Source of the DNA: Candidatus Bathyarchaeota archaeon
GTDB taxonomy: Archaea; Thermoproteota; Bathyarchaeia; 40CM-2-53-6; RBG-13-38-9
DNA length: 64,000 nucleotides
Assembly: GCA_963807605.1 (NCBI GenBank)
Contig: CAWECG010000001.1
Span: 352,001-416,000, forward strand
Direction: 5' to 3'
The notes beneath the pieces are model-generated. The model had not been told where the DNA came from, searched no databases, and saw only the letters and a list, made by a program, of their open reading frames with translations. Of this stretch, positions 1 through 60,510 are shown piece after piece. The position numbers were made by a program, and so were the translations under genes. The stretch's first letter is position 1. Each line of letters starts with the position of its first letter.

Positions 1-145
1 CAATTTCCAGAGCTCGCACCAGTAGTACCACACACAAAGAAATTGTTAGAACGACGGTTCAAATTCAGGCGCTCGCACCATTGATGCCACACACACCACA
101 TTTTTCGACCGAACGACGACGGCTCAAGTTCACTCGTCTACACCA
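1..145 (+). repeat. Three tandem tRNA-3'-like CACCA sites (1-21 cut by window edge, 56-80, 121-145) with CA-rich tails
   Basis: GGTTCAAATTCAGGCGCTCGCACCA and GGCTCAAGTTCACTCGTCTACACCA are both 25 nt; period 59-65 bp. Confidence 0.8.
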
Positions 146-201
146 AAAATAAGACCGCAAGTCTCTTATTCGGAGCTCTCAACTTCATGACCGGTTGATC
201 T

Positions 202-738
202 GTGACCATGACCAATGTTCTAAATAATGTGGACCTTGACAAGATTGCGCAGACAGTTGCAGGCGGGAAGAAAGACAAAAGCACCCTTAGGAAGCCAGTA
301 AAACTGCAAGGTGAATGGAACCTAGATCCCGCTAAAGGCTACCAGTTCAAAACCGAGCTGTCATACGAGAAGGGCAAACAGGTTATTGAGATAGATTCTC
401 CTTCGTTTATGGGAGGATCTGGGAACAGACTCGGTCCAATGGCGTATTGCGTAGCAGGCGAAACGTCGTGTTTCATTGCCACGTTCGCAAGCGTTGCAGC
501 AGAACAAGGCATTAAACTGACCAAACTGGCAGTCGATGCTCAATGCAGCATCAATTGGGCAAAATCATTCGATGTAGCAGATGAACCAATCAATGAGGGT
601 ATTAGCTTTCAGATCGACGCGCAGAGTGATAATGCAGACAAAGAGCGACTTCAAGAGATAGTGAAGATGACAATGGAGCGATGTCCAGCAATGTACAGCA
701 TGACCCATGTGATCAAGGTTGATGCCCGAATCAAGTGA
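202..738 (+). CDS. OsmC/Ohr-like family protein
   Basis: DSPSFMGG..GP, SCF and RCPA cysteine motifs. Confidence 0.8.
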   Translation: MTMTNVLNNVDLDKIAQTVAGGKKDKSTLRKPVKLQGEWNLDPAKGYQFKTELSYEKGKQVIEIDSPSFMGGSGNRLGPMAYCVAGETSCFIATFASVAAEQGIKLTKLAVDAQCSINWAKSFDVADEPINEGISFQIDAQSDNADKERLQEIVKMTMERCPAMYSMTHVIKVDARIK

Positions 739-842
739 ATGATGTCGTTACTCTGCCACAGATCCCTCCTCTCGTCTTCAGTTTTTTTGGTTCTGTTATT
801 CCCCACGCGGGTCGAGTGGTGCGCGCACTCACGAAACTATGC

Positions 843-931
843 GGTTCAAGTTGGGTGGGCCGCACCGTTGAGAACACACACAAAATTGTAACCCAGCAGT
901 TCAAATCCGGATGCTCTCACCAAGATGGCAC
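843..931 (+). repeat. Two tandem tRNA-3'-like sites (843-867, 898-922)
   Basis: GGTTCAAGTTGGGTGGGCCGCACCG; AGTTCAAATCCGGATGCTCTCACCA. Confidence 0.85.
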
Positions 932-1123
932 TGTAAGCGAAACGCACGGCTTCGGATGTCTTGCGTCCGAACATCACGTTAAGTTTTGAAAGGCCGAAGA
1001 AAAAGGAATCATTCTTGTCGATCAGGGTAAGATCGAGGCGGTCGGGGAGCGCCCCCGACAAGATCGAGCTCACTTCCAATCCGCCGAAACCCGCACCCAG
1101 GACAACCACGCGGAGCCCATCAT
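923..1123 (-). pseudogene. N-terminal fragment of an FAD-dependent sulfide:quinone oxidoreductase/NADH dehydrogenase-2-like protein
   Basis: VVVLGAGFGGL Rossmann motif and LTLIDKND; similarity stops at the CCA end of the repeat site. Confidence 0.7.
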
Positions 1124-1435
1124 GATTTATCTCCTTTTCAGGCAAGATTCTCTTAACCGTCAGGTAAGTCTGGGTTATGTTGCAAATAAGGGCTTCCAAT
1201 AGCGGTCGATGGCAGTCACATCCCGCTTAACGAATAGTTCTGTCACCGCCTTTAGTACCAGATCTCTGTTGTTCATTTGGATTTCCTCTAGTTCAACTAT
1301 TCGGCATGTTCCTGCTGGGTCTTACTTTGGCTTGTAGGCGGGTGTGAAGATGGCGTGGGTTGGGTAGATTTCTACTTGGGGGTCCCCTTGGATCCCGATC
1401 TGTTTCATGCCTGACATAAGTCTGGTCTTGACGAA

Positions 1436-1466
1436 GTCGTCGTCGCTCACCATCTATAGCACACAC
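1436..1466 (+). repeat. CTCACCA-core site with (GTC)n left arm and GCACACAC right arm
   Basis: GTCGTCGTCGCTCACCATCTATAGCACACAC. Confidence 0.75.
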
Positions 1467-1760
1467 GCATCCGAATCTTCTATAGACGTGAAACCTGAAA
1501 ATATTTAGAACCAAAGTGGATAATGCTGAGACGCGCGCGCGATGCGAAGAGGGCCTGATACGACGTAAGTGGTGGGACAATGATGCAATATAACGCACGC
1601 TCATAGTCATATCCTAGGTTACGCTAAATTTCGACTAGCACGCGAGTGACAGGATAGACCTGAGAAAGCGGCTGAGGCTCCAGCGCTCACTAAATTTAAA
1701 TCCAGAATAGTTGTATTATAAACACCTGCAACTGTAAGCCGCCTTAGGGGGATCCACAAA

Positions 1761-2120
1761 ATGGATAAAACGAAGCACGAACCCACAGAGAAAAAGCAAC
1801 CAGAAGCTACGCGCTTGGTAATATTCTTGCCGGGAATAGAGAGATCGACTGAGAAAACACTTCGAGTCGCCGCTGTGACCGACGAGGGAAAGATCGATAC
1901 TACCAGAGATGACACCGTGGAACTCTCAATAAACAATGAGGGTCGCATGCGCTTCAAGGACTCATCAAAAAATACGCAACTCAAATTGATTAATGGAGAA
2001 GCAAATGCGACGGTTATATCAGATCAGTCACATGGAGTCTCAATCTTCAAAGCCAGGTGGATAGGTGGGAAGACACCCCTTCAGCCAATACAAGTAACTT
2101 CTATCTATGTTCCTGGATGA
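1761..2120 (+). CDS. Hypothetical protein
   Basis: 119-aa ORF, TATA-like TTATAA upstream, (GC)4 run just downstream. Confidence 0.55.
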   Translation: MDKTKHEPTEKKQPEATRLVIFLPGIERSTEKTLRVAAVTDEGKIDTTRDDTVELSINNEGRMRFKDSSKNTQLKLINGEANATVISDQSHGVSIFKARWIGGKTPLQPIQVTSIYVPG

Positions 2121-2140
2121 GTATGTTTTGCAGCGCGCGC

Positions 2141-2320
2141 TTTACGTAATTTCACATGATCTTACACAAAAAGACACAACTTTACACACATAACCCAAAG
2201 AATTTTTTTTGTATTCAAAATTGTGTGTTTTTATGCGTTTTCACATAAAACTTTCCTTACCAATACTGTGAAATTATGTGTCCAATGTTGTAAAGTTATG
2301 TGGTTTTGCGTATTGTATAG
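2141..2320. repeat. 10-bp-phased repeat array with inverted halves around an A/T centre
   Basis: AC at 2144, 2154, 2164, 2174, 2184; centre CCAAAGAATTTTTTTT; TGTG units in right half. Confidence 0.6.
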
Positions 2321-2538
2321 GTGCTGTCTTACTGTGCCATGGTCATTACCGTGGACAACATCGAGAAGACGCTATTAGTGCCATGACTCCCTGTACTGTG
2401 TGAGCGCGCGCGAAATATTTCCAATGTGTATAGAGACCCTAATGATCATGCTAGCTTATCCATAGAATGTGTGCCCTAATGGTTGCCATTCATCATTAGA
2501 AACTGATAGTTAGAGTGATTCACGCCTGAAGATCTGAG

Positions 2539-2584
2539 GCGAGCTTTAGCGAGCAATATTGTGTGTGCGCACCACTAGACACAC
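2539..2584 (+). repeat. Degenerate S-module plus CTCACCA-family site
   Basis: GCGAGCTTTAGCGAGC..GTGTGTGCGCACCACTAGACACAC. Confidence 0.65.
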
Positions 2585-2662
2585 CTTCCTTGCCCCAGAA
2601 ACTAATACCTGCCTTACGCTATGGCAACTGTTAGATATCCTTGAACCGCAGAACAGCAGTTT

Positions 2663-6348: not shown

Positions 6349-6352
6349 TCCT

Positions 6353-6435
6353 GCGTGCGTAGCGAGCAGTTATCATTGGTGGTGGTGGGTGGTGTGTCCC
6401 TTGGTGAGAGCATCCGAAATTGAACCGTTAGGCTC
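6353..6435 (-). repeat. S-module, (GGT)n, AGGGACAC arm and tRNA-3'-like site (6402-6426)
   Basis: Minus strand reads CCTAACGGTTCAATTTCGGATGCTCTCACCAAGGGACACAC. Confidence 0.9.
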
Positions 6436-7520: not shown

Positions 7521-8646
7521 GAGCTTCTTGCAATATTATATTTTCTGTGTTAATTTTGTGAACTGGATTGGTGACCGCATTTTATCGATGTGTCCGTGCT
7601 TGATCGCGGATAAGGCAGTTGCCAGTAGAGCCAGCAGACAGAGAAGTACATGTGATATGACGTTTCTTAGGCCGCGTGTTCGAAGCTGAGACAATCCGAA
7701 GTGTGTCTTGAGTCTTGAGAATGTTCTCTCCACTGAGGATCGACGTTTATACAGTTGTTTCAGACGGGCAGGTCCGTGTGAGCGGAACTTCCGGTCGATT
7801 CGTAGAACCTGTTTGCCCTTCATCTGGTTTCTAGGGTAAGGTATGATTGGTTCTATGCCCATAGATCTTGCCTTGTCTCTGAAAGCTTCGCTGGAGTATT
7901 GTGAGTCTGCAGTCATGCTCTTCCACCTATGTTTCTTCTTCAATGCTTTATGGAGGAGGTGGGGTGCAACTTTTTTCTCATTTACATTTGCAGGTTCTAT
8001 GGTGACTGCCCGCGGCATCTCGCTGATGGTGTCTACAGCAAGGTGTATGCCGTAGCCTAAGATCACGTTTCTACCTTGTTTTCGTAATCTGGCTTCAGAA
8101 TCGGATAATCCACACTGGGTATTGTGAGGATCTCTTCGACTGTAAGCTTTGATGAATGTGACGTCTAACGCTAGGATTTCAGAGTCCAGAATGTCCATGT
8201 GGTCAAGCTGTTTGATCAGACGGTTCATGAGGCGGTGAAATCCTTGAGGGCCTATTCTACGTCGAAACCTCAGAAGTATTGATGGGTGATATGGATTCTC
8301 TGATTCCTTGATGTCGCAGAGTTTGCAGAGTTCACCGTCGCTCCATAGAAGTCGGTATAGTTCCTCGTAGCTTTCTATGTGTCTTAGCCGTTTGACAAGC
8401 TCTGCTTTGAACATTCCAAGTAAATTTCTATGGGGTCTGCCGACGCTGCTTCTTCTTCCATAGCTTCTTTCTAAGACTTGTTCTACAAACGTTAAATCCA
8501 AAGCCTGAAACAGATCATACAGAGCCTTACACTCGCTCACTTCTTTTTCACCAGAAACGGCATGAGTGGGTGTAAAGCTCATCGATCTTATGATCAAAAA
8601 CACGTATACATCTTCATGTTAAGCCCAAGAATATTGCAAGAGGCTA
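7521..8646 (-). mobile_element. Insertion sequence, IS5/IS1182-like, 1126 bp, copy 1
   Basis: Terminal inverted repeats AGCYTCTTGCAATATT; GCGCGC on both sides; same length and ends as 29542-30667. Confidence 0.92.
7536..8603 (-). CDS. DDE transposase (DUF772 + DDE_Tnp_1 type)
   Basis: ALDVT, ADSQY, YKRRSSVERTFSRLK motifs. Confidence 0.92.
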   Translation of the reverse strand: MFLIIRSMSFTPTHAVSGEKEVSECKALYDLFQALDLTFVEQVLERSYGRRSSVGRPHRNLLGMFKAELVKRLRHIESYEELYRLLWSDGELCKLCDIKESENPYHPSILLRFRRRIGPQGFHRLMNRLIKQLDHMDILDSEILALDVTFIKAYSRRDPHNTQCGLSDSEARLRKQGRNVILGYGIHLAVDTISEMPRAVTIEPANVNEKKVAPHLLHKALKKKHRWKSMTADSQYSSEAFRDKARSMGIEPIIPYPRNQMKGKQVLRIDRKFRSHGPARLKQLYKRRSSVERTFSRLKTHFGLSQLRTRGLRNVISHVLLCLLALLATALSAIKHGHIDKMRSPIQFTKLTQKI

Positions 8647-9994: not shown

Positions 9995-10831
9995 TCAGAT
10001 TCCTTTTAGGGCCAGGACTTCTTTGGCAGGTTTTCTATCTTTGTTGCAGCTGATCAATCGCGGAGCATCCAAGAAACGCAGTTCATATCCCAAGTCCTCG
10101 TAGAGTTTGCATATTCTTGGGGTTGCCTGATTGGAGAGTACAACCGGGCCGGAATGCTCTGTCAACCAATTTGCCAGGCGCACCTGATCGTCCCAGGAGA
10201 ACCCTTCCTTAGAGTACTGGGTAAATATCACATCATAAGGCGGATCCGCATACACAAAATCATCTCGAGAAAGTGAGACCTTCTCGAAATCTCCGGTTGT
10301 AAACTCCCATTCTTGGAAAACCCGTTTGTACGGGGTAAAGTCGTGTGCGTAGTTGATCTTTTGGTATCGACCAAAGGGAACATTAAATTCCCCTGACCGG
10401 TTAAACCGGCAAAGCCCATTATAGCAGGTCCTATTAAGATAATAGAATAACTCAGCCGCTTCTTTGCTGCTGGCTTTTCCAGTCTTTACAAGTTGATTGA
10501 ATCGTCTTCGATGCTGATAGTAGAGTTTTCTATTGTTAGCCAGGGGTATGTCTGTTACAAGGCCCTTCTTGAGCCTTTGAAAGAAGTTTATGGCGTGATT
10601 GTTGATGTCATTAAGAAGAGCCTGAGCAGGCATTAGGCCTAGAACAACAGCAAGACCCCCACACAGCGGCTCAACAAGCCTACGGTCTCTGTAAGGCTCC
10701 CAGATTGGTCTCAGATAAGGAACAAGCCATCTCTTTCCACCAGCCCACTTCAACGGGGGTCTAAGCGATACACTCTCGTAATGGGAACGGTGTGAGGTCT
10801 GGCTCAAGCTTGACTCCATTACGATTGACAC
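9995..10831 (-). CDS. Dam-family (D12 class) N6-adenine DNA methyltransferase, copy 1
   Basis: LKWAGGK, LVEPLCGG, YYLNRTCYNGL.R.N, ADPPY. Confidence 0.93.
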   Translation of the reverse strand: MSIVMESSLSQTSHRSHYESVSLRPPLKWAGGKRWLVPYLRPIWEPYRDRRLVEPLCGGLAVVLGLMPAQALLNDINNHAINFFQRLKKGLVTDIPLANNRKLYYQHRRRFNQLVKTGKASSKEAAELFYYLNRTCYNGLCRFNRSGEFNVPFGRYQKINYAHDFTPYKRVFQEWEFTTGDFEKVSLSRDDFVYADPPYDVIFTQYSKEGFSWDDQVRLANWLTEHSGPVVLSNQATPRICKLYEDLGYELRFLDAPRLISCNKDRKPAKEVLALKGI

Positions 10832-10895: not shown

Positions 10896-10920
10896 AGTAC
10901 AATTCCAGGTGCTCTCACCA
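10896..10920 (+). repeat. tRNA-3'-like site abutting a truncated gene
   Basis: AGTACAATTCCAGGTGCTCTCACCA. Confidence 0.75.
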
Positions 10921-11231
10921 GTCAGAGCCACAATGCCAAGTCTCCGCTGAACCTCTTCACTCTGCACACCCTCAGACCGTGCAAACCTGACAGCCTCACC
11001 CAAAGCACTCGTAATAGTGGAAAGATGATTCTTAGTACAGGGAATACAAGCCACATCCTTCAAGGTTGGGTAGGGATTCTTAACTACTGACACAGGCGCA
11101 ACCACCACTTTGGTATCTGTATACTCACTACGTATCTGTGAAAGCCGTTTTTCAAGCTCTTTTGAAGCAGACTCCAGCTGTCTCTCTAAAGACTCGGACA
11201 TTACGCCTTCACACAGTACCAAGGGTGCCAT
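10921..11231 (-). pseudogene. Hypothetical protein truncated at the CCA site
   Basis: Coiled-coil plus ACIPCTKNH; ORF reads into the repeat. Confidence 0.45.
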
Positions 11232-13754: not shown

Positions 13755-14621
13755 ATGAAACATGTGGTTAAATTCCAAGTCTTAACTGAAAGGCAGGAGT
13801 CGAGATTGCGTCAAACCTTAGGTATAACTCGTTTCGACACTACTGTTTCACTTAGACCCCCGCTTAAATGGGCTGGTGGTAAGAGATGGCTTGTTCCTCA
13901 CCTCAGGCCAATTTGGGAACCTCATAGAAATCGTCGGCTCGTTGAACCTCTGTGCGGCGGGCTTGCTGTTACCTTGGGCTTGATGCCTACTAGCGCTCTT
14001 CTTAATGACATCAACAATCACGCCATAAACTTCTTTCAAAGGCTCAAGAAGGGACTTGTGATAACCGTTCCCATGGAGAATAATCAAAAACTCTACTATC
14101 AGCATCGAAAACGATTTAATGAGCTTATCAAGACTGGCAGAGCTAACAGTCAAGAATCTGCCGAGTTATTTTATTATCTTAATAGAACTTGTTACAATGG
14201 ACTATGTCGTTTCAACCGGTCTGGAGAATTTAACGTACCTTTTGGACGGTACAAGAAAATCAATTACGTACGCGATTTCACCCCCTATAAACAAGTTTTC
14301 AAGGAATGGCTGTTCACAACAGGAGATTTCGAGGATGTCTCTTTAGATCCGAATGATTTTGTGTACGCAGACCCACCTTACGATGTGGAATTCACCCAAT
14401 ACTCCAAAGAAGGATTCTCATGGGAGGACCAAGTGCGTCTGGCTAAGTGGCTCACAAAACATTCTGGCCCAGTTGTACTTTCCAATCAAGCCACTCAGAG
14501 GATATGTGGACTGTATGGTGAGTTGGGGTACAGCTTGCGTTTCTTGAACGCGCCTCGAATGATTAGTTGTAAGGGAGATAGAACTCCCGCTAGGGAAGTC
14601 TTGGCTCTGAGAGGTATTTGA
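13755..14621 (+). CDS. Dam-family N6-adenine DNA methyltransferase, copy 2
   Basis: Same motifs as 9995-10831; close paralogue. Confidence 0.93.
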   Translation: MKHVVKFQVLTERQESRLRQTLGITRFDTTVSLRPPLKWAGGKRWLVPHLRPIWEPHRNRRLVEPLCGGLAVTLGLMPTSALLNDINNHAINFFQRLKKGLVITVPMENNQKLYYQHRKRFNELIKTGRANSQESAELFYYLNRTCYNGLCRFNRSGEFNVPFGRYKKINYVRDFTPYKQVFKEWLFTTGDFEDVSLDPNDFVYADPPYDVEFTQYSKEGFSWEDQVRLAKWLTKHSGPVVLSNQATQRICGLYGELGYSLRFLNAPRMISCKGDRTPAREVLALRGI

Positions 14622-16192: not shown

Positions 16193-16240
16193 TGTATGTG
16201 CTCACCATGTATCGCACACATAATAGATATGGCTCGCTGT
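16193..16240 (+). repeat. Degenerate CTCACCA site plus partial S-module
   Basis: TGTATGTGCTCACCATGTATCGCACACA..GGCTCGCT. Confidence 0.7.
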
Positions 16241-16856: not shown

Positions 16857-16880
16857 CGTCGCTCACCAGCTATGGCTCAC
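16857..16880 (+). repeat. CTCACCA site between convergent genes
   Basis: CGTCGCTCACCAGCTATGGCTCAC. Confidence 0.75.
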
Positions 16881-18148: not shown

Positions 18149-18177
18149 TGTGGTGGAGGTGCTCACCAAGGGACACA
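18149..18177 (+). repeat. CTCACCA site with (GGT)n left arm and AGGGACAC right arm
   Basis: TGGTGGAGGTGCTCACCAAGGGACAC. Confidence 0.85.
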
Positions 18178-19379: not shown

Positions 19380-19875
19380 CCATATTTTGTATGTTGCAGT
19401 TTATTGTTTGTTACTTTCTATGCTGCTTACTGCCAGTTTTGTATTAGTTTTAATTGTTTTTTAGGTCAAGTTATGTCTTTCTTTATGTCTTTGTTTGTTT
19501 TGTTCTAAGTTGGTTTGTATTGTTTAGGTTCAAGTTTCCCAGCATGTTTGGTATTGTGGATTTTCCGGTTTTTCCATGTGTTGATTTAGGTTTGAAATAA
19601 GGCATTGTCTATTCCTGTATTGTATGGTAAACCAAAAACCCCGCAAACCATACATAACATAAACCACAGAAACCAGGAACCGGTAAACTTCCAACTATCA
19701 CTGCTATACCATGCTGCTGCTGGTATGTTCTGCGAGCGTAGCGAGCAGTTATTTTGGTGGTGGTGGTGGTGTGTCCCTTGGTGAGAGCATCGTGATTTGA
19801 ACCGTTAGAGCAGACTATTTTTTTGTGTGTGTGTGCCATAGCTGGTGAGCACCACCACCACCACCACCACCAAGG
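19380..19875 (+). repeat. Long non-coding element, fullest copy B
   Basis: T-rich arm, phased AAACCA arm, S-module 19732-19746, tRNA-like site 19779-19803 (-), second core 19843-19849, (ACC)7; homologous to 5515-5900 and inverted 42985-43093. Confidence 0.85.
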
Positions 19876-20189: not shown

Positions 20190-20858
20190 TTATTCTTTCG
20201 GATACCCAACTGCTTGAGCAAAAACGATTGGTTGATCTTCCCCCAGTTTCAAGCTGTCTTTCAGTGAAGCTCGGTCAATGTTAGCATAGAAGTGGGCGCC
20301 TAGCCCTTCGGAGGCGCAGTACAGGTACACATTCTGGCCGATAAACCCCGTGTGAGCGGCAGAATAAAGCTCCTTCTGGGACTGAGGAATCATTCCAAAT
20401 TTGGCGTAGTCCGCAACAAAGAGTAGATGTACCGGCGCTTCTTTCAAAAATTCCTCATTCGTCGCCTTTGTCCGAAGGTCTTCAGCCAGCACGGGTGTTA
20501 GCTGATTCCCTTTCGCATCATACAGATAAACCCCTTCAGGGAGGAGGACATAAATGTCAATCGCTTGAGTATTCATGGCTGTTGGAGCAGTACGCTTACC
20601 TGAATCCTGACGATTAATACCCCACGCTGCCCATAGCAGATCCAGAAGTTTTTCATTGGACAGTGGTTGCGGTTGAAACGCGTTTGTTGACTTTCTGTTT
20701 CTTAATGCTTCCGATAAGGTAGCAACCTTGGCTACCTGTCCGGAGGGCTGCCCATAGTATTGGTAAGCTTCATATCCAGCAATGGCTACAGCGCCTGCAG
20801 CAACAGCAGCGCCAGCATATTTCAGATACTTGCGACGACTAATCTTACGCTCACTCAA
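20190..20858 (-). CDS. SagB/ThcOx-type nitroreductase with twin-arginine signal
   Basis: SRRKYLK signal; LLWAAWGINR..GKRTAPTA; GQNVYL.C.SEGL. Confidence 0.85.
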   Translation of the reverse strand: MSERKISRRKYLKYAGAAVAAGAVAIAGYEAYQYYGQPSGQVAKVATLSEALRNRKSTNAFQPQPLSNEKLLDLLWAAWGINRQDSGKRTAPTAMNTQAIDIYVLLPEGVYLYDAKGNQLTPVLAEDLRTKATNEEFLKEAPVHLLFVADYAKFGMIPQSQKELYSAAHTGFIGQNVYLYCASEGLGAHFYANIDRASLKDSLKLGEDQPIVFAQAVGYPKE

Positions 20859-21034: not shown

Positions 21035-21117
21035 GCGAGCGTAGCGAGCCATTAGATTATGTTGTGTGTGTGTGTGTGTGTGTGTGTGTGCTCACCAAGG
21101 GACACGATGCGCGCGCG
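21035..21117 (+). repeat. S-module, (TG)14, CTCACCA-AGGGACAC site and (GC)n run
   Basis: Read directly from sequence. Confidence 0.9.
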
Positions 21118-23980: not shown

Positions 23981-24036
23981 GTGTGTGCCTTAGCTGGTGA
24001 GCACACACACTAAAACGACTGGCTCGCTACACTCGC
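23981..24036 (-). repeat. CTCACCA site plus S-module at the end of a duplicated segment
   Basis: GTGTGTGCCTTAGCTGGTGAGCACACACAC..GGCTCGCTACACTCGC. Confidence 0.9.
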
Positions 24037-26712: not shown

Positions 26713-26856
26713 GAGAAAACATAGGGAGCGCTGAATTAATCATCAACACGATCAGTTTCAAGATTCCATATCGTTTGAAGCCTGAAGATCTATGGTGCAT
26801 TTGAATTAGCTTCTGCGTGAGAGCAGCGCGCGCTACGCTAAGAAATAGTGGAATCA

Positions 26857-26877
26857 GTCCCTTGGTGGGCACACACC
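26857..26877 (-). repeat. Degenerate CTCACCA site
   Basis: GTCCCTTGGTGGGCACACAC. Confidence 0.7.
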
Positions 26878-26957: not shown

Positions 26958-27833
26958 TCATAGGCCATCAGAACGCCCACCGTTTAATGGGATTACTGAG
27001 CCATTCATGTATGATGATTCTTCGCTGCATAAGAATAATATGACATTGGCAACATCTTTCGGCTTACCAATTCCTAGTGGGATGCGTGATTCATAGTACT
27101 TCATCCATTTTCCATCATCTTTGAGGCGCAAATCATCATTCATAGGGGTATCAATTATAGTAGGCATCACCACATGTGTTTTTACGTTGTATTGAATCAG
27201 TTCTTTCGCAGCGGTCTTAGCCATTCCTATAACTCCTGCTTTTGATGCGCTGTATGCAATTTGACCTATATTTCCCTCGGCAGCTGTACTGCTAATACAG
27301 ATAATGCGTTTGTCAGGAAATGTTCGCGGAGGCGGAACTGGTTTTCCACTAGCCTTTGAGGTTTTTATCTGAGCGTCAGGCTCCTTGATCCACTTCTTCA
27401 CACACGTTTGCATGAACAAGAAGAGACCTTTAAGATTTGTATCGACCACATCACCAAAAGTCTCTTCCGAAATCTTGGCAATCATACCATCCTTCCTGAT
27501 GCCAGCACAGGCGACAAGATAATCAAGGTCACCAAACCTATCAAATACCTTATCCACACAAGCTTCAACATCGTCTTTTTTCCTTACGTCACCAGTAAAT
27601 GCGATGCATTCGCTGCAGTGTTTTTTTATTTCTCTGCGGGCTGATTCAACAGTTTCACCATTTACATCAAATATGGCAACTTTCGCTCCTCTCATCGCAA
27701 ACTGGATAGCTGTCTCTTTTCCTATGCCGCTGGCCCCACCTGTGATTAGAACAACTTTATTCTCAAAGCCCATTGGTTTGGCCTCCCGTCTTAATGCATC
27801 GATTGAAGTATGCTTATCCGTATTTATTATCAC
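26958..27833 (-). CDS. Short-chain dehydrogenase/reductase, FabG-like (likely start MGFEN ~27773)
   Basis: TGGASGIG, YSASK. Confidence 0.9.
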   Translation of the reverse strand: MIINTDKHTSIDALRREAKPMGFENKVVLITGGASGIGKETAIQFAMRGAKVAIFDVNGETVESARREIKKHCSECIAFTGDVRKKDDVEACVDKVFDRFGDLDYLVACAGIRKDGMIAKISEETFGDVVDTNLKGLFLFMQTCVKKWIKEPDAQIKTSKASGKPVPPPRTFPDKRIICISSTAAEGNIGQIAYSASKAGVIGMAKTAAKELIQYNVKTHVVMPTIIDTPMNDDLRLKDDGKWMKYYESRIPLGIGKPKDVANVILFLCSEESSYMNGSVIPLNGGRSDGL

Positions 27834-27880: not shown

Positions 27881-27905
27881 GTGTTTGTCCCATAGCTGGT
27901 GCGAC
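27881..27905 (-). repeat. Degenerate CTCACCA-family site
   Basis: GTGTTTGTCCCATAGCTGGTGCG. Confidence 0.55.
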
Positions 27906-28134: not shown

Positions 28135-28185
28135 TGTGTGTGTGCCTTATCTGGTGAGAGCATCCGGATTTGAACCTTTAGAGCA
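28135..28185 (-). repeat. tRNA-3'-like site (28152-28176) with GGCACACACAC arm
   Basis: Minus strand reads GGTTCAAATCCGGATGCTCTCACCA-GATAAGGCACACACAC. Confidence 0.9.
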
Positions 28186-28472
28186 GGTTAATTTTCTTGT
28201 GATGCTGGAAAATAGCGCGCTCTACACCGGCCATTAAGATGGTTTTGAAGAAGCGAGGTCATCGGACTTACCCATACATGTTCTCGCTTCTCAGATTCTT
28301 AGCGCGTCGCTATGTTTTCATCGCCTTTAAGGGCTCAGGGCAAGCGTAAATCATGTCTTACAGATATTGTGTGAGTCAGCCCGCGCTGCACAAGGGATAA
28401 ATGATTGCGGGAACCTTTTGGATTTGACTAGAAAGCGCGCGTCGAGACCGTGACTTCGCTAATAGGAGGTTT

Positions 28473-29123
28473 GTGATGGAAGTTCTTGAGGCAATTAAAA
28501 AGAGAAGAACAATACGAGCGTTCACGAAAAGAGCTACCGAAGAGCAAGTGCGAAGGTTGCTACTTGCTGGTGTGCAAGCACCCTCCGGTTCGAATGTTCA
28601 GCCCTGGGAATTTATAATCATTGATGATCCCACGATTATTGAACAAATCGCGGAGGCTAAATATCAACAGACTCTAAAAATGGATATTGACGATGCGGTA
28701 CTCGAAAACCCGGCTGCCATTGAACAGATTCATCAGCAGTCTCTCAAGACTCCTCTTTCGCTAGTTAGAGCAACAAGACAGAAAAACGCTTATCAAAACT
28801 GTGCAGTGATCGCGGTCTGCAACAAAAAGGGGCACGGTATCGGACGAAAACCCTGGATGAATGTTGAGAATATAGCCAGCACGTGGATGTGCATCCAGAA
28901 TATCGCTTTGGCAGCAACCGCTGAGGGATTGGGTGTTCAGATTTCTATTCTTCGCGAGGAACACCAGATAGCCGTGGAAAAGCTCTTGGGCATCCCTGAT
29001 GACCACGAACTGGCCACTATGATAATGATAGGCGTGCCGGCAGGAATCCCCAACCGAAGAGAGTTTGGAGCGGATCGGCCGGAGTTTAGCTGGCTTCACC
29101 GGAATCGCTTCAGCACAGATTAA
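28473..29123 (+). CDS. Nitroreductase family protein
   Basis: RRTIRAF, APSGSNVQPW, QNIALAATAEGLG. Confidence 0.9.
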   Translation: MMEVLEAIKKRRTIRAFTKRATEEQVRRLLLAGVQAPSGSNVQPWEFIIIDDPTIIEQIAEAKYQQTLKMDIDDAVLENPAAIEQIHQQSLKTPLSLVRATRQKNAYQNCAVIAVCNKKGHGIGRKPWMNVENIASTWMCIQNIALAATAEGLGVQISILREEHQIAVEKLLGIPDDHELATMIMIGVPAGIPNRREFGADRPEFSWLHRNRFSTD

Positions 29124-29541
29124 AGTTTACCTGCGTCAATGGTTTAGGTGAAAATCTGACGGCATGCTTGACGCAGTATTTCTTAAGCTCTCTACCATTA
29201 AGCCTGTTTTCAAACCTGTTCAGCTTAACCCACAGGTGATTCAAAGTTTCAAGCCGGAAGTGCTTTCTTGAGAAATTCCAGATTTTCCCCCTAAACATCA
29301 TTTTCCTGTAGAACGCCCGGATCTCTGAAGTCTGCACTTCCAGCTCAGACCATCATGGATCCTTCCTCGAATAAGAAACAGAGAGGAGAATGAATGTCCA
29401 GAGAGGGAAAAGTGTACGTCTACTCTCAGCTGGCGGTTTGACGGTCAAAACTGCTGGATGCTAGGTGTTCAAGCGGCCATTCTTAGGGCATTTGCAAATC
29501 GAGGATGTCGGCGAGGTTGTAATGCCAACAAGTAAGCGCGC

Positions 29542-30667
29542 TAGCCTCTTGCAATATTCTTGGGCTTAACATGAAGATGTATACGTGTTTTTGATCATAA
29601 GATCGATGAGCTTTACACCCACTCATGCCGTTTCTGGTGAAAAAGAAGTGAGCGAGTGTAAGGCTCTGTATGATCTGTTTCAGGCTTTGGATTTAACGTT
29701 TGTAGAACAAGTCTTAGAAAGAAGCTATGGAAGAAGAAGCAGCGTCGGCAGACCCCATAGAAATTTACTTGGAATGTTCAAAGCAGAGCTTGTCAAACGG
29801 CTAAGACACATAGAAAGCTACGAGGAACTATACCGACTTCTATGGAGCGACGGTGAACTCTGCAAACTCTGCGACATCAAGGAATCAGAGAATCCATATC
29901 ACCCATCAATACTTCTGAGGTTTCGACGTAGAATAGGCCCTCAAGGATTTCACCGCCTCATGAACCGTCTGATCAAACAGCTTGACCACATGGACATTCT
30001 GGACTCTGAAATCCTAGCGTTAGACGTCACATTCATCAAAGCTTACAGTCGAAGAGATCCTCACAATACCCAGTGTGGATTATCCGATTCTGAAGCCAGA
30101 TTACGAAAACAAGGTAGAAACGTGATCTTAGGCTACGGCATACACCTTGCTGTAGACACCATCAGCGAGATGCCGCGGGCAGTCACCATAGAACCTGCAA
30201 ATGTAAATGAGAAAAAAGTTGCACCCCACCTCCTCCATAAAGCATTGAAGAAGAAACATAGGTGGAAGAGCATGACTGCAGACTCACAATACTCCAGCGA
30301 AGCTTTCAGAGACAAGGCAAGATCTATGGGCATAGAACCAATCATACCTTACCCTAGAAACCAGATGAAGGGCAAACAGGTTCTACGAATCGACCGGAAG
30401 TTCCGCTCACACGGACCTGCCCGTCTGAAACAACTGTATAAACGTCGATCCTCAGTGGAGAGAACATTCTCAAGACTCAAGACACACTTCGGATTGTCTC
30501 AGCTTCGAACACGCGGCCTAAGAAACGTCATATCACATGTACTTCTCTGTCTGCTGGCTCTACTGGCAACTGCCTTATCCGCGATCAAGCACGGACACAT
30601 CGATAAAATGCGGTCACCAATCCAGTTCACAAAATTAACACAGAAAATATAATATTGCAAGAAGCTC
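29542..30667 (+). mobile_element. Insertion sequence, IS5/IS1182-like, 1126 bp, copy 2
   Basis: Same TIRs; flanks GCGCGC and ACGCGC. Confidence 0.92.
29585..30652 (+). CDS. DDE transposase
   Basis: Protein identical to 7536-8603. Confidence 0.92.
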   Translation: MFLIIRSMSFTPTHAVSGEKEVSECKALYDLFQALDLTFVEQVLERSYGRRSSVGRPHRNLLGMFKAELVKRLRHIESYEELYRLLWSDGELCKLCDIKESENPYHPSILLRFRRRIGPQGFHRLMNRLIKQLDHMDILDSEILALDVTFIKAYSRRDPHNTQCGLSDSEARLRKQGRNVILGYGIHLAVDTISEMPRAVTIEPANVNEKKVAPHLLHKALKKKHRWKSMTADSQYSSEAFRDKARSMGIEPIIPYPRNQMKGKQVLRIDRKFRSHGPARLKQLYKRRSSVERTFSRLKTHFGLSQLRTRGLRNVISHVLLCLLALLATALSAIKHGHIDKMRSPIQFTKLTQKI

Positions 30668-42907: not shown

Positions 42908-43077
<170 letters not shown>

Positions 43078-43093
<16 letters not shown>

Positions 43094-44319
43094 CACGCTG
43101 AACGTGGAGTGCGCCTTGAGTATCGATGAGGTCTTCTTTCGAAAGCGTGTCGAGTTTCATCGCTGGATCTGCTCGATCCTTCTCTCCTAGCAGTGAATGC
43201 GTCCGGGCCAGAGCTGAAGTTAAGTCGCTCAATCCGGTCGTCTGCCATCGATTGTATTGCCCGAAAGTCGACATTTTGCTCCGCGGATACTATCGTCACT
43301 GCGGTTCCCGTCTTGCCAGCTCGTCCGGTTCGACCAATCCTGTGGAAGTAAGTATACGGATTCTCAGGAACGTCATAGTTGATAATGTGTGTAACTCCGT
43401 CAATATCCAAGCCTCTTCCGGCCAGGTCAGTGGCAACCAGTATACGACTCTGACCGCTTCGAAATGCCTTCATTGCTCTATCGCGTTGATGTTGGGTAAG
43501 GTCACCGTTTAGTGCTATGGCGTCTTGATTTCTTCTCCCGAGTGATTGGTTCAGCCAGAATGTGCTGCGTTTGGTTCGACAGAAAACTATGGCACGTTGT
43601 ACTTCTTTGTCCTGCAGGATTCTTAAGAGCGCATCAAGTTTTCTTTCATGATCCACTTGGCAGTAGTATTGGCTAATCTGCTTGACATTGAGATCCTCCG
43701 GTTCGATCAGGACTTCGCGAGGGTTCTTCATATGCCTACGGGCAAGTTTCAGTACTTCCTTGGGCATCGTAGCGGAGAAGAACGCGATTTGACGTTTACT
43801 CCTAGTCTTAGTTAGAATATGCTCAACGTCATCAATGAAACCCATGTCCAGCAACCTGTCAGCCTCATCCAGAACAACACACTGGACTTTTTCAAGGTGA
43901 AGGGATCCACGTTCTATATGGTCGATGACTCGTCCCGGTGTTCCAACTATGATCTGCGGGCAATCTTCTAAGGCGCGTATTTGCACATTAATTGATTGGC
44001 CACCATAGATTGCAAGAGCGTGCTTGCGAGTGAATCTGCCATACGAGTTGATATCGCTGGCTACTTGCACTGCAAGCTCGCGTGTCGGAACGAGCACCAG
44101 CGCCTGAATGTTCAGGTTCTTTTCGTCAACGATCTCCAAGAGCGGTAGGCCGAAGGCAGCGGTCTTTCCAGTTCCGGTATGTGCTTGACCAATGACATCG
44201 CTTCCGTGCCGCAGAAGCGGAATAATTGCTTCTTGGATCGGAAACTGTCTCTCGAATCCAAGTGCCTTGATAGCGTCCAATATTTCTGAGCTTAAGCCCA
44301 GTTTCTCGAAATTACTCAT
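43078..44319 (-). CDS. DEAD-box RNA helicase (CshA/DeaD-like), extreme C-terminus derived from repeat
   Basis: TGTGKT, PTRELA, DEAD, SAT, HRIGRTGR. Confidence 0.95.
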
Positions 44320-44949: not shown

Positions 44950-45074
44950 TCGTCGTCGTCGCCATAGCTGGTGAGCACACACACGAAATCAATACCAAGC
45001 GGTTCAATTCTAGATGCTCTCACCAACTAAGATGGGATATAGATAACTGGCTGTTTTGTGTGGTCACGTGGATG
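44950..45074. repeat. Divergent pair of sites (core 44969-44975 on -, tRNA-like 45001-45025 on +) plus extension shared with 59278-59318
   Basis: Read directly from sequence. Confidence 0.88.
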
Positions 45075-48106: not shown

Positions 48107-48220
48107 GTGTGTGTGCTCACCAAGGGATACTCCCAACATGAGGTGGTGGATAATAGTGTCGTCGTCACTCACCAGCTAGGCACACACACAAATCATAATC
48201 TAATGGCTCGCTACCCTCGC
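48107..48220 (+). repeat. Two tandem CTCACCA sites (48116-48122, 48168-48174) plus S-module
   Basis: GTGTGTGTGCTCACCAAGGGATAC; GTCGTCACTCACCAGCTAGGCACACACAC. Confidence 0.9.
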
Positions 48221-55444: not shown

Positions 55445-56173
55445 TTAAGGCCCACCTGTGAAATATGCTGTCACAGTGTGATCATAGTTCATCACAAGTG
55501 TAACTGAGGCAGAGGGCGTGTAGTTAACACCGTCAATAGTCCAGTAGCTTAACGCATAGCCGCCATAGGGGTAGGCGGTTACTGTCACAACTGATCCAGC
55601 AGAATACGAGTAAGTCCCAATTGATGGAGAGGTAACACCCTGTCCGCTATTGTATATCGTAAGCTGAGCCGTTACCATTACGCCGCTGTTATAGAAGTTC
55701 CAATTGTAATTGTTCCAATTGTAATTGTTCCAATTGTAATGGTGATGAGTAATAATACCGCCATGTCTGTCATTACGTCCATTATGATTGCCTCCATTGG
55801 CCCCCCCGATAGTGAAACTGTGGGTAGCCCCGGCAACTGTTGCTTGGGCCTGCGTAGGAGTCGTTATCACGTTCCAAGACTTGGTCCCGCTCAAAGACTT
55901 GGTTCCGCTCCAATGTCTGGGGCCGGAGGAGTTTCCATGCGTGGAATAGGCCGTGTTAAGGATTCTGCCCTCGTTTGTGCTCGTTTTATCTGGCGCCGCA
56001 TTTGCTGTCGCTGTAAGTGTGACGCTCGTCGCTAGCGCCGAACCTATAACTACTACGATCATCACTGCTACCGTAAGTGGGTCGATCTTACTTTTTGCTC
56101 TCATTTTTCCCACCATACTGTAATGAAGATGGATATCTAGGTATGTAGGTTGTGGAACTTTGTTAGTGAACAA
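55445..56173 (-). CDS. Secreted protein with InlB B-repeat-like domain, copy 2
   Basis: Paralogue of 23229-23879; three 15-bp YNWNN repeats. Confidence 0.7.
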   Translation of the reverse strand: MFTNKVPQPTYLDIHLHYSMVGKMRAKSKIDPLTVAVMIVVVIGSALATSVTLTATANAAPDKTSTNEGRILNTAYSTHGNSSGPRHWSGTKSLSGTKSWNVITTPTQAQATVAGATHSFTIGGANGGNHNGRNDRHGGIITHHHYNWNNYNWNNYNWNFYNSGVMVTAQLTIYNSGQGVTSPSIGTYSYSAGSVVTVTAYPYGGYALSYWTIDGVNYTPSASVTLVMNYDHTVTAYFTGGP

Positions 56174-56485
56174 TGTTAACTTACTAGTTATGTAAGAGTG
56201 TGCGCGTCCACAAAGAACCGGCGTCTCCCAGACTTCTTATGGGTCTTTCCGGTGTCCTTTCGATCTTCTTGATTTTGTGTGTCCGCAAGTCTTGAATTTG
56301 GAACTCGGAAATAAGTGCACTTCGAGACGGGTGATGCTTTTGGCCTTTATTGGGCCTTGGGAGATGTTGCTTCTTGCCTTTATTGTTGTACCGGCTGCAA
56401 TAGTCAGTTTTCACTCACAAGAACACAAGGTTCCCAATAGAGGAGTATGGATTTTCATAACACTCGTAACGTCTGCTTGGCCTAA

Positions 56486-56596
56486 GCGCGCGCTAGCCTC
56501 CAGATTTGAACCGTTAGAGGAGAGTGTGTGTGCTCACCAGCTAATGCACATACACATGCCCCTTGGTGAGCGACGACGACGTTCACCAAGGGATAC
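56486..56596. repeat. Cluster: (GC)4 run, truncated tRNA-like site and three CACCA cores in alternating orientation
   Basis: Cores near 56533(+), 56564(-), 56583(+). Confidence 0.88.
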
Positions 56597-56657: not shown

Positions 56658-57011
56658 ATGAACAACTTTCCAAATTTCATGAAAAACCCGAAGAATGCCA
56701 TAGATCCATCTTCGCAAAGCAAAGGGGTGAAAGGTTACATTTACGATGGAGCTGACGGTGGCCAAATGACCTTTTGGGAATGTCATATTGATGGCAAATC
56801 TCATGAGCATGTCCACAATTTTGATGAGTACTTTGTGATTGTGCAGGGGCAATATACGCTGATACTAAATAGTCAGAAAATCCTATTGAAAACTGGTGAC
56901 GAATACTTCATACCGATGGGAATAAAACATGCCGGTGAATTCACATCTGGAACCAAAACAATACATGCTTTTGGTGGAAGGCGTGCAGAAAGAGCGGCGA
57001 CGGACAGATAA
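56658..57011 (+). CDS. Cupin domain protein
   Basis: HEHVHNFDEY..G, IP.GIKH. Confidence 0.88.
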   Translation: MNNFPNFMKNPKNAIDPSSQSKGVKGYIYDGADGGQMTFWECHIDGKSHEHVHNFDEYFVIVQGQYTLILNSQKILLKTGDEYFIPMGIKHAGEFTSGTKTIHAFGGRRAERAATDR

Positions 57012-57639: not shown

Positions 57640-57710
57640 TGTCCCTTGGTGAGCACACACAAAACCCACTCTAACGGTTCAAATTTGGGTGCTCTCACGA
57701 GCTAGGACAA
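57640..57710. repeat. Divergent pair of sites (core 57647-57653 on -, tRNA-like 57676-57700 on +)
   Basis: Read directly from sequence. Confidence 0.88.
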
Positions 57711-57773: not shown

Positions 57774-58575
57774 TTGTTTTCAATGCCGAAAGTGGGGGTG
57801 AATGATATTCAGATTTACTATGAAGTGCATGGTGAAGGCTTTCCATTAATAATGATTCACGGGTTAGGTGCAAACACAGACTGGTGGGAGCGCTGGGTTA
57901 CAGAACTCTCCAAGAAATTCATGACAGTAATCTTCGACAACAGGGGGGCTGGACGCACCGACGTATCTGACAGAAGATACACCATCAGACTGTTTGCTGA
58001 TGACACAGCGGGTTTGATGGATAACTTGGGAATTTCTAGGGCTCACGTGCTTGGACTTTCAATGGGTGGAATGATAGCACAAGAGCTGGTGCTCAACTAC
58101 CCCCAGAAAGTCGAAAAGCTCGTCCTCTGCTCCACCAACTGTGGAGGTAGAAAGAGGGTTCCACCATCTAAGGATGTGATGGGAAGGCTCATGGCTGACA
58201 GAAGCACTTTGTCTGAGAAAGAAAAAGCCAAAATGGATTCCAACGAAAGTCTAACCGAAGATTTCGCCAAAAAGAACCCTGACTTAGTAGAGCGCATGGT
58301 AGCAACAGATCCTTAAGGCTCCAATTTCAGACGAAGCCTACAAGCGACAACTGAATGCAATAATGGAATTCGACACCTATGATAGGCTACCTCAGATTAA
58401 GGCCCCCACTCTGATATTAGCAGGTAAACAGGATATCCTCATGCCTCCTGGGAACGGTTCAATCTTGGCTGAAGCCATACCCAATGCTAAGCTTGTCTAT
58501 CTTGAAAAGTCAGCCCACGGTCTTCAAGAAGAAATGGATGAAGTAATCAACTCTGTAACAGGTTTCCTTGGCTAA
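57774..58575 (+). pseudogene. Alpha/beta hydrolase, frameshift near 58300
   Basis: HGLG, DNRGAGRT, GLSMGG; next frame PTLILAG.QD..AHG. Confidence 0.82.
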
Positions 58576-58692
58576 CCTTTGCACTATCGCACATATGATA
58601 TGGAACTCTGATGTAAACCAAGCATTAAGTCTCGCCAGTTACCGCCTGAACTCTTTTTGCCATAAGAGTTGATTGAACTCTTGAAAAGGTTA

Positions 58693-58738
58693 GCGCGCGT
58701 TTTTTTTGTGTGTGCTCACCAGCTGGGTCACACACACA
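58693..58738 (+). repeat. (GC)n run plus CTCACCA site
   Basis: GTGTGTGCTCACCAGCTGGGTCACACACAC. Confidence 0.85.
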
Positions 58739-58855
58739 AGCAAGGACGGATTCCAGGTTGACCGGCTAATTCTCAGGGATCCCTCCCTTCACTTGTCAAG
58801 TTATGAAAGCCCATATATTGTCAACCCGTTATAATTATGAGTTGGCGGAAAGAAA

Positions 58856-59149
58856 ATGCCTCACTACATTGTCTTGGTGAAACTAACTGAGAAGGGAAGA
58901 CAAAACTTCAAGCAGGGATGGATGAAGGACAGGCCGCAAGTAAAAGCGCAGGTTCAGAAGATGGGTGGAAAAATGACAGGATACATGACGTTCGGTCAAT
59001 ACGACAGTGTGGAGCTTCTAGAACTACCGGACGACAAAGCTGCTGCGCGATTCGCAATGATGGCCGGAGCAACTGGCCTGATAAGAACCGTGACTCTCAA
59101 AGCCTTCTCAGAAGACGAAGTTGACAAGATGGTCCAGGAAATTCTTTAG
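58856..59149 (+). CDS. GYD domain protein
   Basis: MP.YIVL.KLT..G, TFGQYD, TLKAF. Confidence 0.85.
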   Translation: MPHYIVLVKLTEKGRQNFKQGWMKDRPQVKAQVQKMGGKMTGYMTFGQYDSVELLELPDDKAAARFAMMAGATGLIRTVTLKAFSEDEVDKMVQEIL

Positions 59150-59199
59150 ATTCCTGACCATCTCGTTTCCTTTTTTTATCGCCTCAGCCGTCTGGCTTT

Positions 59200-59318
59200 T
59201 GTGTGTGTGCCCTAGCTGGTGAGAGCACCGTAATTTGAACCGGCAGATTCTTTGTGTGTGTGCTCACCAAGGGACAGGGGATATGGATAACTGGGTGGTT
59301 TTGGTTTCCACGTAGATG
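59200..59318. repeat. Divergent pair of sites (tRNA-like 59217-59241 on -, core 59263-59269 on +) plus extension
   Basis: Read directly from sequence. Confidence 0.9.
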
Positions 59319-59420
59319 TTAGATAAGGCTAGGTGGGATTGTCTAGCCGATTTTGTTCTTCAGGGTTTTCTGTTGATGTTCAGTTTTAACTTATATTAGC
59401 TTTCTTTTCAAGATATGTTG

Positions 59421-59996
59421 TTAATAGCTATTAATTTTTTGACTTATTAGTGAACTTATTAGTTTGGCAGTGTCGCTTTCTATTCTTTCTAGATCCGCGT
59501 CGTTAGGTCGGCCTCTTATGTCTCCCAGTCTGCCTTTTGTACTGAACTCTTCAGATCCATGAAATTCACCTATGACATACCATTCTGCTTTTACGTTGAA
59601 TCCGATATGTTCAAAGACTTGGCGCATGATTTTGCCGGCGGGGGTAGCTTCATCTATTCCAGTATGAACGCCTGAGTAAGTACAGAATATGATCGCATTT
59701 TTGCCCGGAACCTTGGGAGCGGACAGCTTAACGTATCCCTTACTCCGATAATGCATCAACTTTCGCTTGAGGAAATCCATCATAGGAGGAGCCGGCAACC
59801 TTTCATACGGAGGTGCACCGATACAGACTAGGTCATAATTGAAAAAGTCTTCTTGTTCCGCTTCATCAACCTTCTCAACAATGGGTGTTACTCCCGTCTT
59901 TCTCATACCCTTCGATATAGCTTCCTTAACCTTCTCCGTGTTTCCAGTTTTCGACCAATAAATAATCAAAGCTTTGAATTGTTCTATTTCTTTCAT
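59421..59996 (-). CDS. Flavodoxin-like protein
   Basis: YWSKTGNTEKV, IGAP, FCTYSG. Confidence 0.85.
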   Translation of the reverse strand: MKEIEQFKALIIYWSKTGNTEKVKEAISKGMRKTGVTPIVEKVDEAEQEDFFNYDLVCIGAPPYERLPAPPMMDFLKRKLMHYRSKGYVKLSAPKVPGKNAIIFCTYSGVHTGIDEATPAGKIMRQVFEHIGFNVKAEWYVIGEFHGSEEFSTKGRLGDIRGRPNDADLERIESDTAKLISSLISQKINSY

Positions 59997-60185
59997 GATT
60001 ATCGTCGCTAATGTCTTTACTCCTTCTATTTATAGAATAGGGCATTCAAATCAATTCTGACTTATAACAAGTCACATCATCGATCTGACGAATTCATAAG
60101 GTGTGTATTACTGTTATTGTTTTCCATCTCATGCCTTGCTTACTTTTCTGAAGGCAACTATGTCTTGGCTTCTTGAAGAGCGCGC

Positions 60186-60319
60186 TAGAGCCTGCCACAC
60201 TTACCAGTGAAGTATTTGGACTACCAACGAACAAGCTTGAGATCTTAACACCCTACCTAACATTAGCAGGACTAGTCGCTGCAGTATCCGCAGTAGTGGT
60301 TAGGAGAAGAAGAGCCTAA
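60186..60319 (+). pseudogene. Orphan C-terminal sorting/anchor tail
   Basis: PTNKLEILTPYLTLAGLVAAVSAVVVRRRRA*, beginning after GCGCGC 60180-60185. Confidence 0.6.
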
Positions 60320-60378
60320 CCAAATATTCCTCCTCTTTTTTCGTAAATTCCTAGGATAGTTTCTTTTTCGTCGTATAG

Positions 60379-60510
60379 GCGAGCGTAGCGAGCCAGTTGT
60401 TTTTTTGTGTGTGCCGTAGTTGGTGAGAGCACCCTAATTTGAACCATTAGGTTTTAGTTTTTTTGTGTGTGTGCATTAGCTGGTGAGCGACGACGACACG
60501 ACGACGCGAC
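60379..60510 (-). repeat. S-module plus two tandem sites (tRNA-like 60421-60445, core 60481-60487)
   Basis: Period 60 bp; same layout as 19732-19870. Confidence 0.9.

Follow-up and report, generated by a model that had tools for sequence, protein, structure and literature searches.

The stretch analyzed here (the window) comprises 64,000 nucleotides, G000:C1:352001-416000, from a Candidatus Bathyarchaeota archaeon whose 2.65-Mb genome (G000) is available in five contigs and is 94% complete. Short sites built around the heptamer CTCACCA are dispersed through it. We conclude that these sites are very probably the target duplications and element ends of a casposase, a solo Cas1 integrase, of the kind that moves family-2 casposons such as those of Methanosarcina mazei. 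The casposase was identified from the register of a leader motif, the sequence of the element tips, the 14-bp length of the repeat, the transfer RNA (tRNA) ends at which related stacks begin, and the linkage of such repeats to Cas1. The window itself is a scrambled stack of non-autonomous units. Positions without a prefix refer to the window, and the prefix C denotes a contig of this genome.

Structure and distribution of the sites

The window contained 28 exact CTCACCA cores, where the genome average (484 in 2.65 Mb) would give about 12. A fixed rule that included arm context returned 28-29 sites, or 31-32 once degenerate copies were added; a preceding sequence-only reading of this DNA had correctly recognized a dispersed family, with a slightly high count of about 35. 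All 19 sites that it had placed exist, each with the left and right arm class assigned to it. Position 57676 is the start of a leader (T-arm) whose core, at 57694, has one mismatch, and the sites at 28152 and 60421 have variant right arms. The fixed-rule scan likewise reproduced its description of sites on both strands, pairing at 50-65 bp and missing from the blocks at 28.2-42.9 kb and 48.3-56.4 kb. Applied to the whole genome, the rule found 155 sites with 82 different versions of the repeat, and none in the reversed genome; 15% of the genome falls within 3 kb of a site. The genome scan that the earlier reading had proposed showed clustering and not an even spread: with close pairs merged, 90 of 122 loci had a neighbor within 3 kb, against 29.7 expected. 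The densest island holds 38 sites (C1:351909-426344), and the window is its core.

The repeat unit is 14 bp long, consisting of CTCACCA plus 7 nt, and arms join it at both edges. Two lineages of the 7-nt second half, GCTANGG and AGGGAYA, had previously been described as two right arms; the true arm starts after them, and the four arm combinations reported earlier arise from the two target sequence lineages, each having either a leader or an element tip to its left. Left and right arms lying 2 nt apart, giving spacers of 12, 14 or 16 nt, were also considered and ruled out, the AGGG type having 7 nt as well. Four types of end were recognized: three simple repeats (CA, GAC and CAC) and one G-rich type that starts GGGGATAT. 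All four occurred on either side of the 14-mer in inverted orientation. One arm type ends in TATATCCCC, resembling the ends of Methanosarcina casposons. Junctions were scored for the two tip types whose register is unambiguous. On the right side, 11 of 13 GAC tips and 7 of 7 G-rich tips started exactly 7 nt past the core, and on the left side 8 of 10 and 6 of 6, respectively, abutted the core exactly.

The leader was never seen as a right arm. Its motif TCAAWT was found at -15 in 27 of 31 sites, which had been chosen without using the leader, and its spacing from the core equals the distance from the T-loop to the CCA end of a tRNA. Thirty segments of 32-60 bp (median 43), seven of them in the window, lie between two direct or divergent 14-mers and consist of a tip plus a leader. 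Overall, convergent and divergent pairs of 14-mers were about as frequent as direct ones.

Some further features of the tips were recorded. Tips are usually 6-10 nt long; CA tips reaching as much as 68 nt occur at C1:520645 onward, 21060-21090 and 42940-42970, expanded perhaps by slippage or by synthesis involving the element's putative primase. Convergent 14-mers separated by 8-10 bp of tip were present at C3:49787-49823, C3:386181-386217, C1:426322-426357 and 56533-56570. Here and in relatives, many tips are followed by a subterminal module resembling CTCGCTACGCTCGC and a second one resembling CCCAACATGAGG (in the window, for instance, at 6350-6385, 19735-19770 and 60385-60410), which are possible protein-binding sites.

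The exact leader-plus-core pattern was found in 25 stretches among 185,579 species genomes, all of them from Candidatus Bathyarchaeia, and in none of the viral contigs searched. Within this class, 7 of the 14 genomes from the same family had the strict pattern, against 0 of 286 other sampled genomes; it also occurred in one genome of another family. Window genes with relatives in five related genomes were scattered over different contigs there. Five soil sequencing runs (word share 5-8%) provided assembled contigs of relatives; site-to-site joints in these runs had sides of 22-42 bases, were indistinguishable from repeat mis-mapping and were not used.

The casposase and its elements

As the sequence-only reading had supposed, the enzyme is encoded away from the window, which contains neither a casposase nor a recombinase gene. 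A solo Cas1 is encoded at C3:803495-804700 (L046:1360-2568). Its best PDB match, over the full length, was 6OPM, which we take to be the M. mazei casposase (residues 4-397, E 6e-72); the alignment spans the C-terminal domain, and a helix-turn-helix (HTH) at the C terminus, as required of family 2, is thus present. No Cas2 gene was found in the 94% complete genome and no CRISPR array near Cas1.

The Cas1 gene belongs to a 9-kb element (C3:796420-805427) with a leader, identical flanking 14-mers and matched GAC tips. The flanking 14-mer is a rare variant with three copies in the genome. Cas1 elements with a leader, identical 14-mers and matched tips were likewise found at two other loci (L130 and L076). 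The matched ends of these three complete elements are simple repeats of about 12 nt, and terminal inverted repeats of at least 25 bp were not found on them; G-rich canonical ends occur on other units. Neither the complete 9-kb element nor any of 44 Cas1 loci contained a PolB gene, the two PolB genes of the genome lying elsewhere, and no HNH nuclease was found among the ten open reading frames (ORFs) of the element. Because it lacks PolB, HNH and long terminal inverted repeats, the system is not counted as a member of family 2; it works like a family-2 casposon, yet stands outside the family by these criteria.

A recurrent module beside Cas1 comprises a P-loop ATPase, two small ORFs and an ORF of HTH type; the ATPase is similar to viral proteins and to proteins from Bathyarchaeia. 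A small element protein of 157 aa has 655 relatives with invariant DxD and SxxKGxH motifs, and a fold search gave weak best matches of the archaeo-eukaryotic primase (AEP) type (Z 5.3-6.1, E about 0.01). That a primase-helicase replicon might replace PolB is a lead, not a result.

The association between sites and enzyme extended to other loci. Of 33 metagenome loci fetched by Cas1 protein alone, some redundant and many short, 14 carried sites, compared with 0 in reversed controls. Real tRNA 3' ends, followed by 7 nt and a tip, begin the stack in L076, L088 and L136, which have CGCACCA as their core. The type of core, CTCA or CGCA, tracked the casposase tree with 2 changes, against a mean of 4.9 after shuffling. 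None of the tRNA genes detected in G000 ends in CTCACCA or has a tip after it; in this genome, therefore, it is the islands that now hold the target.

Fragments of tRNA-Leu-type 3' ends lie about 100 bp from leader sites and point away from them (Table 1); they are remnants either of integrase attachment sites or of older targets. In L132:1-11215, a casposase module of the same clade adjoins a type III CRISPR-Cas locus that has a separate Cas1, and no 14-bp sites were detected there. A casposase with 72% identity (P0138) is annotated in Candidatus Njordarchaeum, of the Asgard archaea, and the clade may on this annotation extend beyond Bathyarchaeia.

Mechanism and alternative explanations

Reading of a leader, joining at two edges and duplication of the target by fill-in are established for family 2. 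By the same scheme, each site would be a copy of a 14-bp casposase target, with 7 nt mimicking a tRNA 3' end down to its CCA plus 7 further nt. The casposase would read the tRNA-T-loop-like leader, with TCAAAT at -15, and attach the two ends of the element, the first to the leader edge and the second 14 nt beyond it, after which fill-in would duplicate the target; the simple-repeat and G-rich arms would be the element ends. Autonomous elements carrying Cas1, the HTH and small ORFs and the P-loop ATPase, without PolB, would provide the enzyme in trans. Many units would carry a leader plus target about 45 bp inside one tip, inserted either way round. Every insertion would then make the next landing site, and nested islands could grow on both strands without a tRNA gene. 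Any two short tips might serve as ends, allowing composite moves, inversions and deletions that part duplicated pairs. Internal pads of this kind predict a core after every leader and no junction between a leader and the far edge, which is what was observed; runs of three or four repeats, sites on both strands and clustering without a tRNA gene are explained as well.

Movement of whole blocks was evident. Two places, C1:519757 and C3:454502, share a 0.9-kb segment that is 95% identical between them and has both ends at sites, with different left arms. Duplicated cassettes were 95-98% alike, indicating that movement was recent. The sites are, as previously suggested, enzyme-made junctions that bound one- or two-gene accessory units and at which flanks have been swapped.

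Several observations weigh against the casposase interpretation. Adjacent 14-mers in the window usually differ from each other. Identical 14-mers were not enriched within 15 kb (10 observed, 9.5 expected), and many segments are convergent or have unmatched tips. When only direct neighbors with matched tips were considered, 5 of 12 had 14-mers within one mismatch of each other, against 1.7 expected (p 0.02). Unmatched neighbors and convergent segments mean that the island is not a clean row of single insertions, and the pairs must have been parted by composite moves using any two tips, by intramolecular events or by subsequent recombination due to other enzymes. The simple-repeat tips (3' GTG or TCG) are unlike the TCCCC ends that have been tested and are candidate casposase substrates, and the agreement of core type with the casposase tree may reflect host kinship. 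Finally, the sole full casposase of the assembly, the other copies being fragments (the nearest 11 kb before the window), retains E167 and E253 and has a proline in place of His236 through a change of one base, a histidine being found in all 28 other rows of the alignment; this is either an inactive copy or an assembly error.

Alternatively, the casposase made the sites and the later scrambling (inverted and unmatched neighbors) was mostly the work of homologous recombination between the repeats or of relaxed archaeal tyrosine integrases, which would leave a decayed hotspot in place of a working system. The missing excess of matched pairs, the 82 different 14-mers among 155 sites, the degenerate copies and IS5-type insertions of the window, the broken casposase copies and the many integrases of the genome all point this way, and archaeal integrases can rearrange genomes with low sequence specificity, according to one report (PMC8371274). 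Against it, the junction of tip and 14-mer is still exact to the base on either side, hybrid junctions retain the register, and the likeness of duplicated cassettes speaks for recent movement. We consider this account unlikely, though well within reason, and it is compatible with a casposase origin of the sites.

The sequence-only reading had instead proposed an integron- or shufflon-like platform on which a tyrosine or serine recombinase swaps arms within the 7-bp core, by an exchange of the attB/attP to attL/attR kind. Flank homology between copies does often begin or end at the core, sites are present on both strands, and leader-type sites occur just downstream of tyrosine integrase genes (C2:57421, C4:442258, C1:288994, L044 and L045). 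However, arms meet both edges of a 14-bp block, too long for the overlap of a tyrosine recombinase, which is 6-8 bp; the same arm types occur inverted on either side and the leader never on the right, contrary to a reciprocal exchange of arms. The predicted co-occurrence with one recombinase clade did not hold, as the neighboring integrases come from at least three families, most of them behind tRNA genes, a shared hotspot that M. mazei casposons are reported to use too (PMC4779613). Leader sites behind tyrosine integrase genes are best read as such shared tRNA hotspots. A shufflon would demand an adjacent dedicated recombinase; none lies in the window, and no single family is linked to the sites. 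A recombinase would also leave unexplained the leader register, the casposon-type ends and the matched duplications around Cas1; leader motif, end sequence, repeat length, tRNA register and linked enzyme all fit a casposase, and we regard the recombinase model as very improbable. Hardly credible, too, are REP/BIME- or NIME-like mosaic repeats spread by an HUH (Y1) or IS110-type enzyme, with hairpin signals in place of duplications. A tip, 14-mer and tip can fold as a hairpin, the genome has four Y1 transposase matches, and the small element protein shows weak Y1-transposase fold matches. Yet Y1 genes do not as a rule lie next to sites (a single fragment, C4:76255, is within 2 kb), IS110 (PF02371) is absent from the 94% complete genome, and many sites have unlike arms that could form no stem. 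In the small protein the DxD and SxxKGxH motifs are primase-like, and AEP folds rank first among its matches; the matched duplications around Cas1 elements also argue against hairpin signals.

Among other candidates, a genome search for IntI gave a best score of 34 bits against a cut-off of 265. A resolvase was rejected as site maker, being present in a single copy unlinked to sites. Tyrosine recombinases (five Pfam matches in the genome and about six more by profile) were rejected as well: some have a site downstream, but they are of different families at tRNA hotspots. The genome also has an expanded family of tyrosine integrases of about 500 aa that is missed by PF00589, several members of which lie directly behind tRNA genes (Table 1); at some of these loci, CCA and 7 variable nt are followed by a GGTTCAG-like arm.

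Related systems and features of the window

The casposase interpretation was compared with published systems. Closest are the family-2 casposons of M. mazei (MetMaz1FA1A3-C2 and relatives; PMC6977970, PMC4779613), whose casposase produces 14-bp duplications starting from the CGCA of tRNA-Leu and acts on ends of the form TATATCCC (PMC6977970), and in which tandem elements share one duplication at a tRNA hotspot also used by tyrosine-integrase elements (PMC4779613). Shared with them are a full-length homologous Cas1 with C-terminal HTH, a 14-bp duplication from the same tRNA position, G-rich ends, reuse of one target by tandem elements with a common duplication, tRNA and intergenic look-alike targets, and tyrosine-integrase elements nearby. 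In contrast to family 2, the elements here have a small AEP-like protein and a P-loop ATPase, with no PolB or HNH found; most ends are simple repeats of 5-12 nt and not long inverted repeats; and most units are enzyme-less, with target copies carried inside them. There are about 155 target copies in the genome here, as opposed to a few.

The Aciduliprofundum boonei element AciBoo-C1 (PMC5137440, PMC6614799) has a TCAAAT leader in the same register. The signal for its casposase is TCAAATC, located 8 bp upstream of a 14-15-bp duplication, and TCCCC is all that the element end has to provide (PMC6614799), so that few terminal bases suffice for integration, and, as here, the duplication consists of a tRNA end plus 7 nt (PMC5137440). 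AciBoo-C1 is a single self-synthesizing element at an intact tRNA-Pro gene, whereas the window island has no tRNA gene. Integrons (IntI, attI, attC) likewise string together units of one or two accessory genes between copies of a repeated site, with the enzyme encoded apart, and archaeal attC clusters (CALINs) can lack IntI. The units here differ in having two ends, no IntI, target duplication in place of conservative recombination, and sites on both strands, not one co-oriented attC per cassette. Resemblances to CRISPR arrays are the Cas1-family enzyme, the leader, a repeat that is a target duplication and runs of repeats at 50-65 bp; CRISPR repeats are themselves thought to descend from casposon target duplications (PMC6977970, PMC9939771). 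However, the window repeats are 14 bp long and not 23-50 bp, neither Cas2 nor any sign of guide RNA function was found, and unique foreign spacers are not seen: short spacers are stereotyped leader-bearing element ends and long ones are genes. A literature search that left subscription papers largely outside its reach found no description of casposons in Bathyarchaeia, of natural mini-, non-autonomous or PolB-less casposons, or of casposase-built cassette arrays.

A more ambitious proposal is a working Cas1-built gene-cassette system, in which the casposase would create units as well as move tipped ones. Arbitrary DNA would be joined at the leader-distal edge, or after addition of a short repeat tip, and self-carried landing pads would keep the array growing. 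Hints of capture are a 1-kb gene that is 96% identical outside any array and inside one, where it has an 8-nt tip and a 14-mer, a multi-copy sequence cut exactly at +14, and diverse flanks after the 14-mer. We judge such capture distinctly doubtful; if true, the system would represent an extant intermediate linking casposons with CRISPR adaptation and, in function, an archaeal counterpart of integrons.

The arrangement looks like a CRISPR array built from whole genes, most units being enzyme-less gene carriers, whereas published casposons occur in one to three copies with their own polymerase. Under the casposase interpretation, casposons are able to lose PolB and to give rise to non-autonomous derivatives, and accessory genes have a route by which to spread in an abundant lineage of sediment archaea. 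How a transposon turns into a leader-repeat array becomes testable with one small enzyme and short oligonucleotides, and the relaxed, very short ends and portable 40-bp target are of interest for site-specific integration tools.

The features of the window are listed in Table 1. Of the cargo named by the sequence-only reading, OsmC, short-chain dehydrogenase, cupin, hydrolase, GYD and flavodoxin genes were recognized by Pfam, and the HEPN gene was reduced to a weak DUF4145 match.

Table 1. Target copies, cargo genes and other mapped features (window positions unless a contig or locus is named).
Feature	Position	Strand	Context
Two 14-bp copies, CGCA-type core	15-28, 74-87	+	45-bp tip-plus-leader module between; part of run of four beginning C1:351909
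OsmC-like cargo gene	202-738	+	Pfam
Degenerate tRNA-like copy (861-874) and target copy (916-929)	861-929	+	41-bp tip-plus-leader module between
14-bp target copy	1446-1459	+	GAC tip left, CA tip right; right flank has 90% copy at C3:584338-584988, with same site as start
14-bp target copy	6395-6408	-	Leader (T-arm), CAC tip
Degenerate 14-bp target copy	10914-10927	+	Leader
14-bp target copy	16201-16214	+	CA tip each side
14-bp target copy	16862-16875	+	GAC tip left, right without tip
14-bp target copy	18162-18175	+	CAC tip left, right without clear tip
Direct 14-bp copies (19836-19849, 19772-19785)	19772-19849	-	50-bp tip-plus-leader module (internal landing pad)
Nitroreductase cargo gene	20190-20858	-	
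14-bp target copy	21091-21104	+	Long CA tip left
14-bp target copy	23988-24001	-	CA tip each side; flank has 94% copy at 55815-56281, ending in CA tip
14-bp target copy, one mismatch	26856-26869	-	CA tip left
Short-chain dehydrogenase cargo gene	26958-27833	-	Pfam
Degenerate 14-bp target copy	27890-27903	-	
14-bp target copy	28145-28158	-	Leader, CA tip
14-bp target copy	42926-42939	+	Degenerate leader, long CA tip
DEAD-box RNA helicase cargo gene	43078-44319	-	Between sites in G002 too; 4-kb loci of G013 and G045 without site
Divergent 14-bp copies	44962-45032	44962 (-), 45019 (+)	43-bp tip-plus-leader module; GAC tip and degenerate G-rich casposon end on opposite sides
Two 14-bp copies (48116, 48168)	48116-48181	+	38-bp insert without leader
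Convergent 14-bp copies	56533-56595	56533 (+), 56557 (-)	10-bp tip remnant between; degenerate copy at about 56582
Cupin cargo gene	56658-57011	+	Pfam
Divergent 14-bp copies	57640-57707	57640 (-), 57694 (+)	40-bp tip-plus-leader module
Alpha/beta hydrolase cargo gene	57774-58316	+	Pfam
14-bp target copy	58715-58728	+	CA tip each side
GYD-domain cargo gene	58856-59149	+	Pfam
Divergent 14-bp copies	59210-59276	59210 (-), 59263 (+)	39-bp tip-plus-leader module
Canonical family-2-like casposon end	59277-59310	+	Starts GGGGATAT
Flavodoxin cargo gene	59421-59996	-	Pfam
Direct 14-bp copies (60474, 60414)	60414-60487	-	46-bp tip-plus-leader module
IS5/IS1182-like and IS5 transposases	7536-8603, 29585-30652, 62560-63453		
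tRNA-Leu-type 3'-end fragments	C3:765420-765660, C3:452070-452250, C4:442140-442258, C2:55941-56066		
Tyrosine integrases of about 500 aa	C4:439720, C2:47792, C1:8041, C2:19269, C4:65852; L044		

Of the three IS5-type insertions of the island, two have IS5/IS1182-like transposases whose family scores are identical, and the third has an IS5 transposase. Two Dam-family adenine methyltransferase genes (9995-10831 and 13755-14621) face apart around queC/queT genes and are followed by a DUF6996/6997/7226 gene; one of the methyltransferases is 88% identical in DNA to G001, and the group is a possible defence cassette. The nitroreductase gene at 28397-29124 has 85-86% DNA identity to its copies in L118 and L119, two genomes of another genus, far more than the 65-73% of most shared genes; this level of identity suggests a recent transfer.

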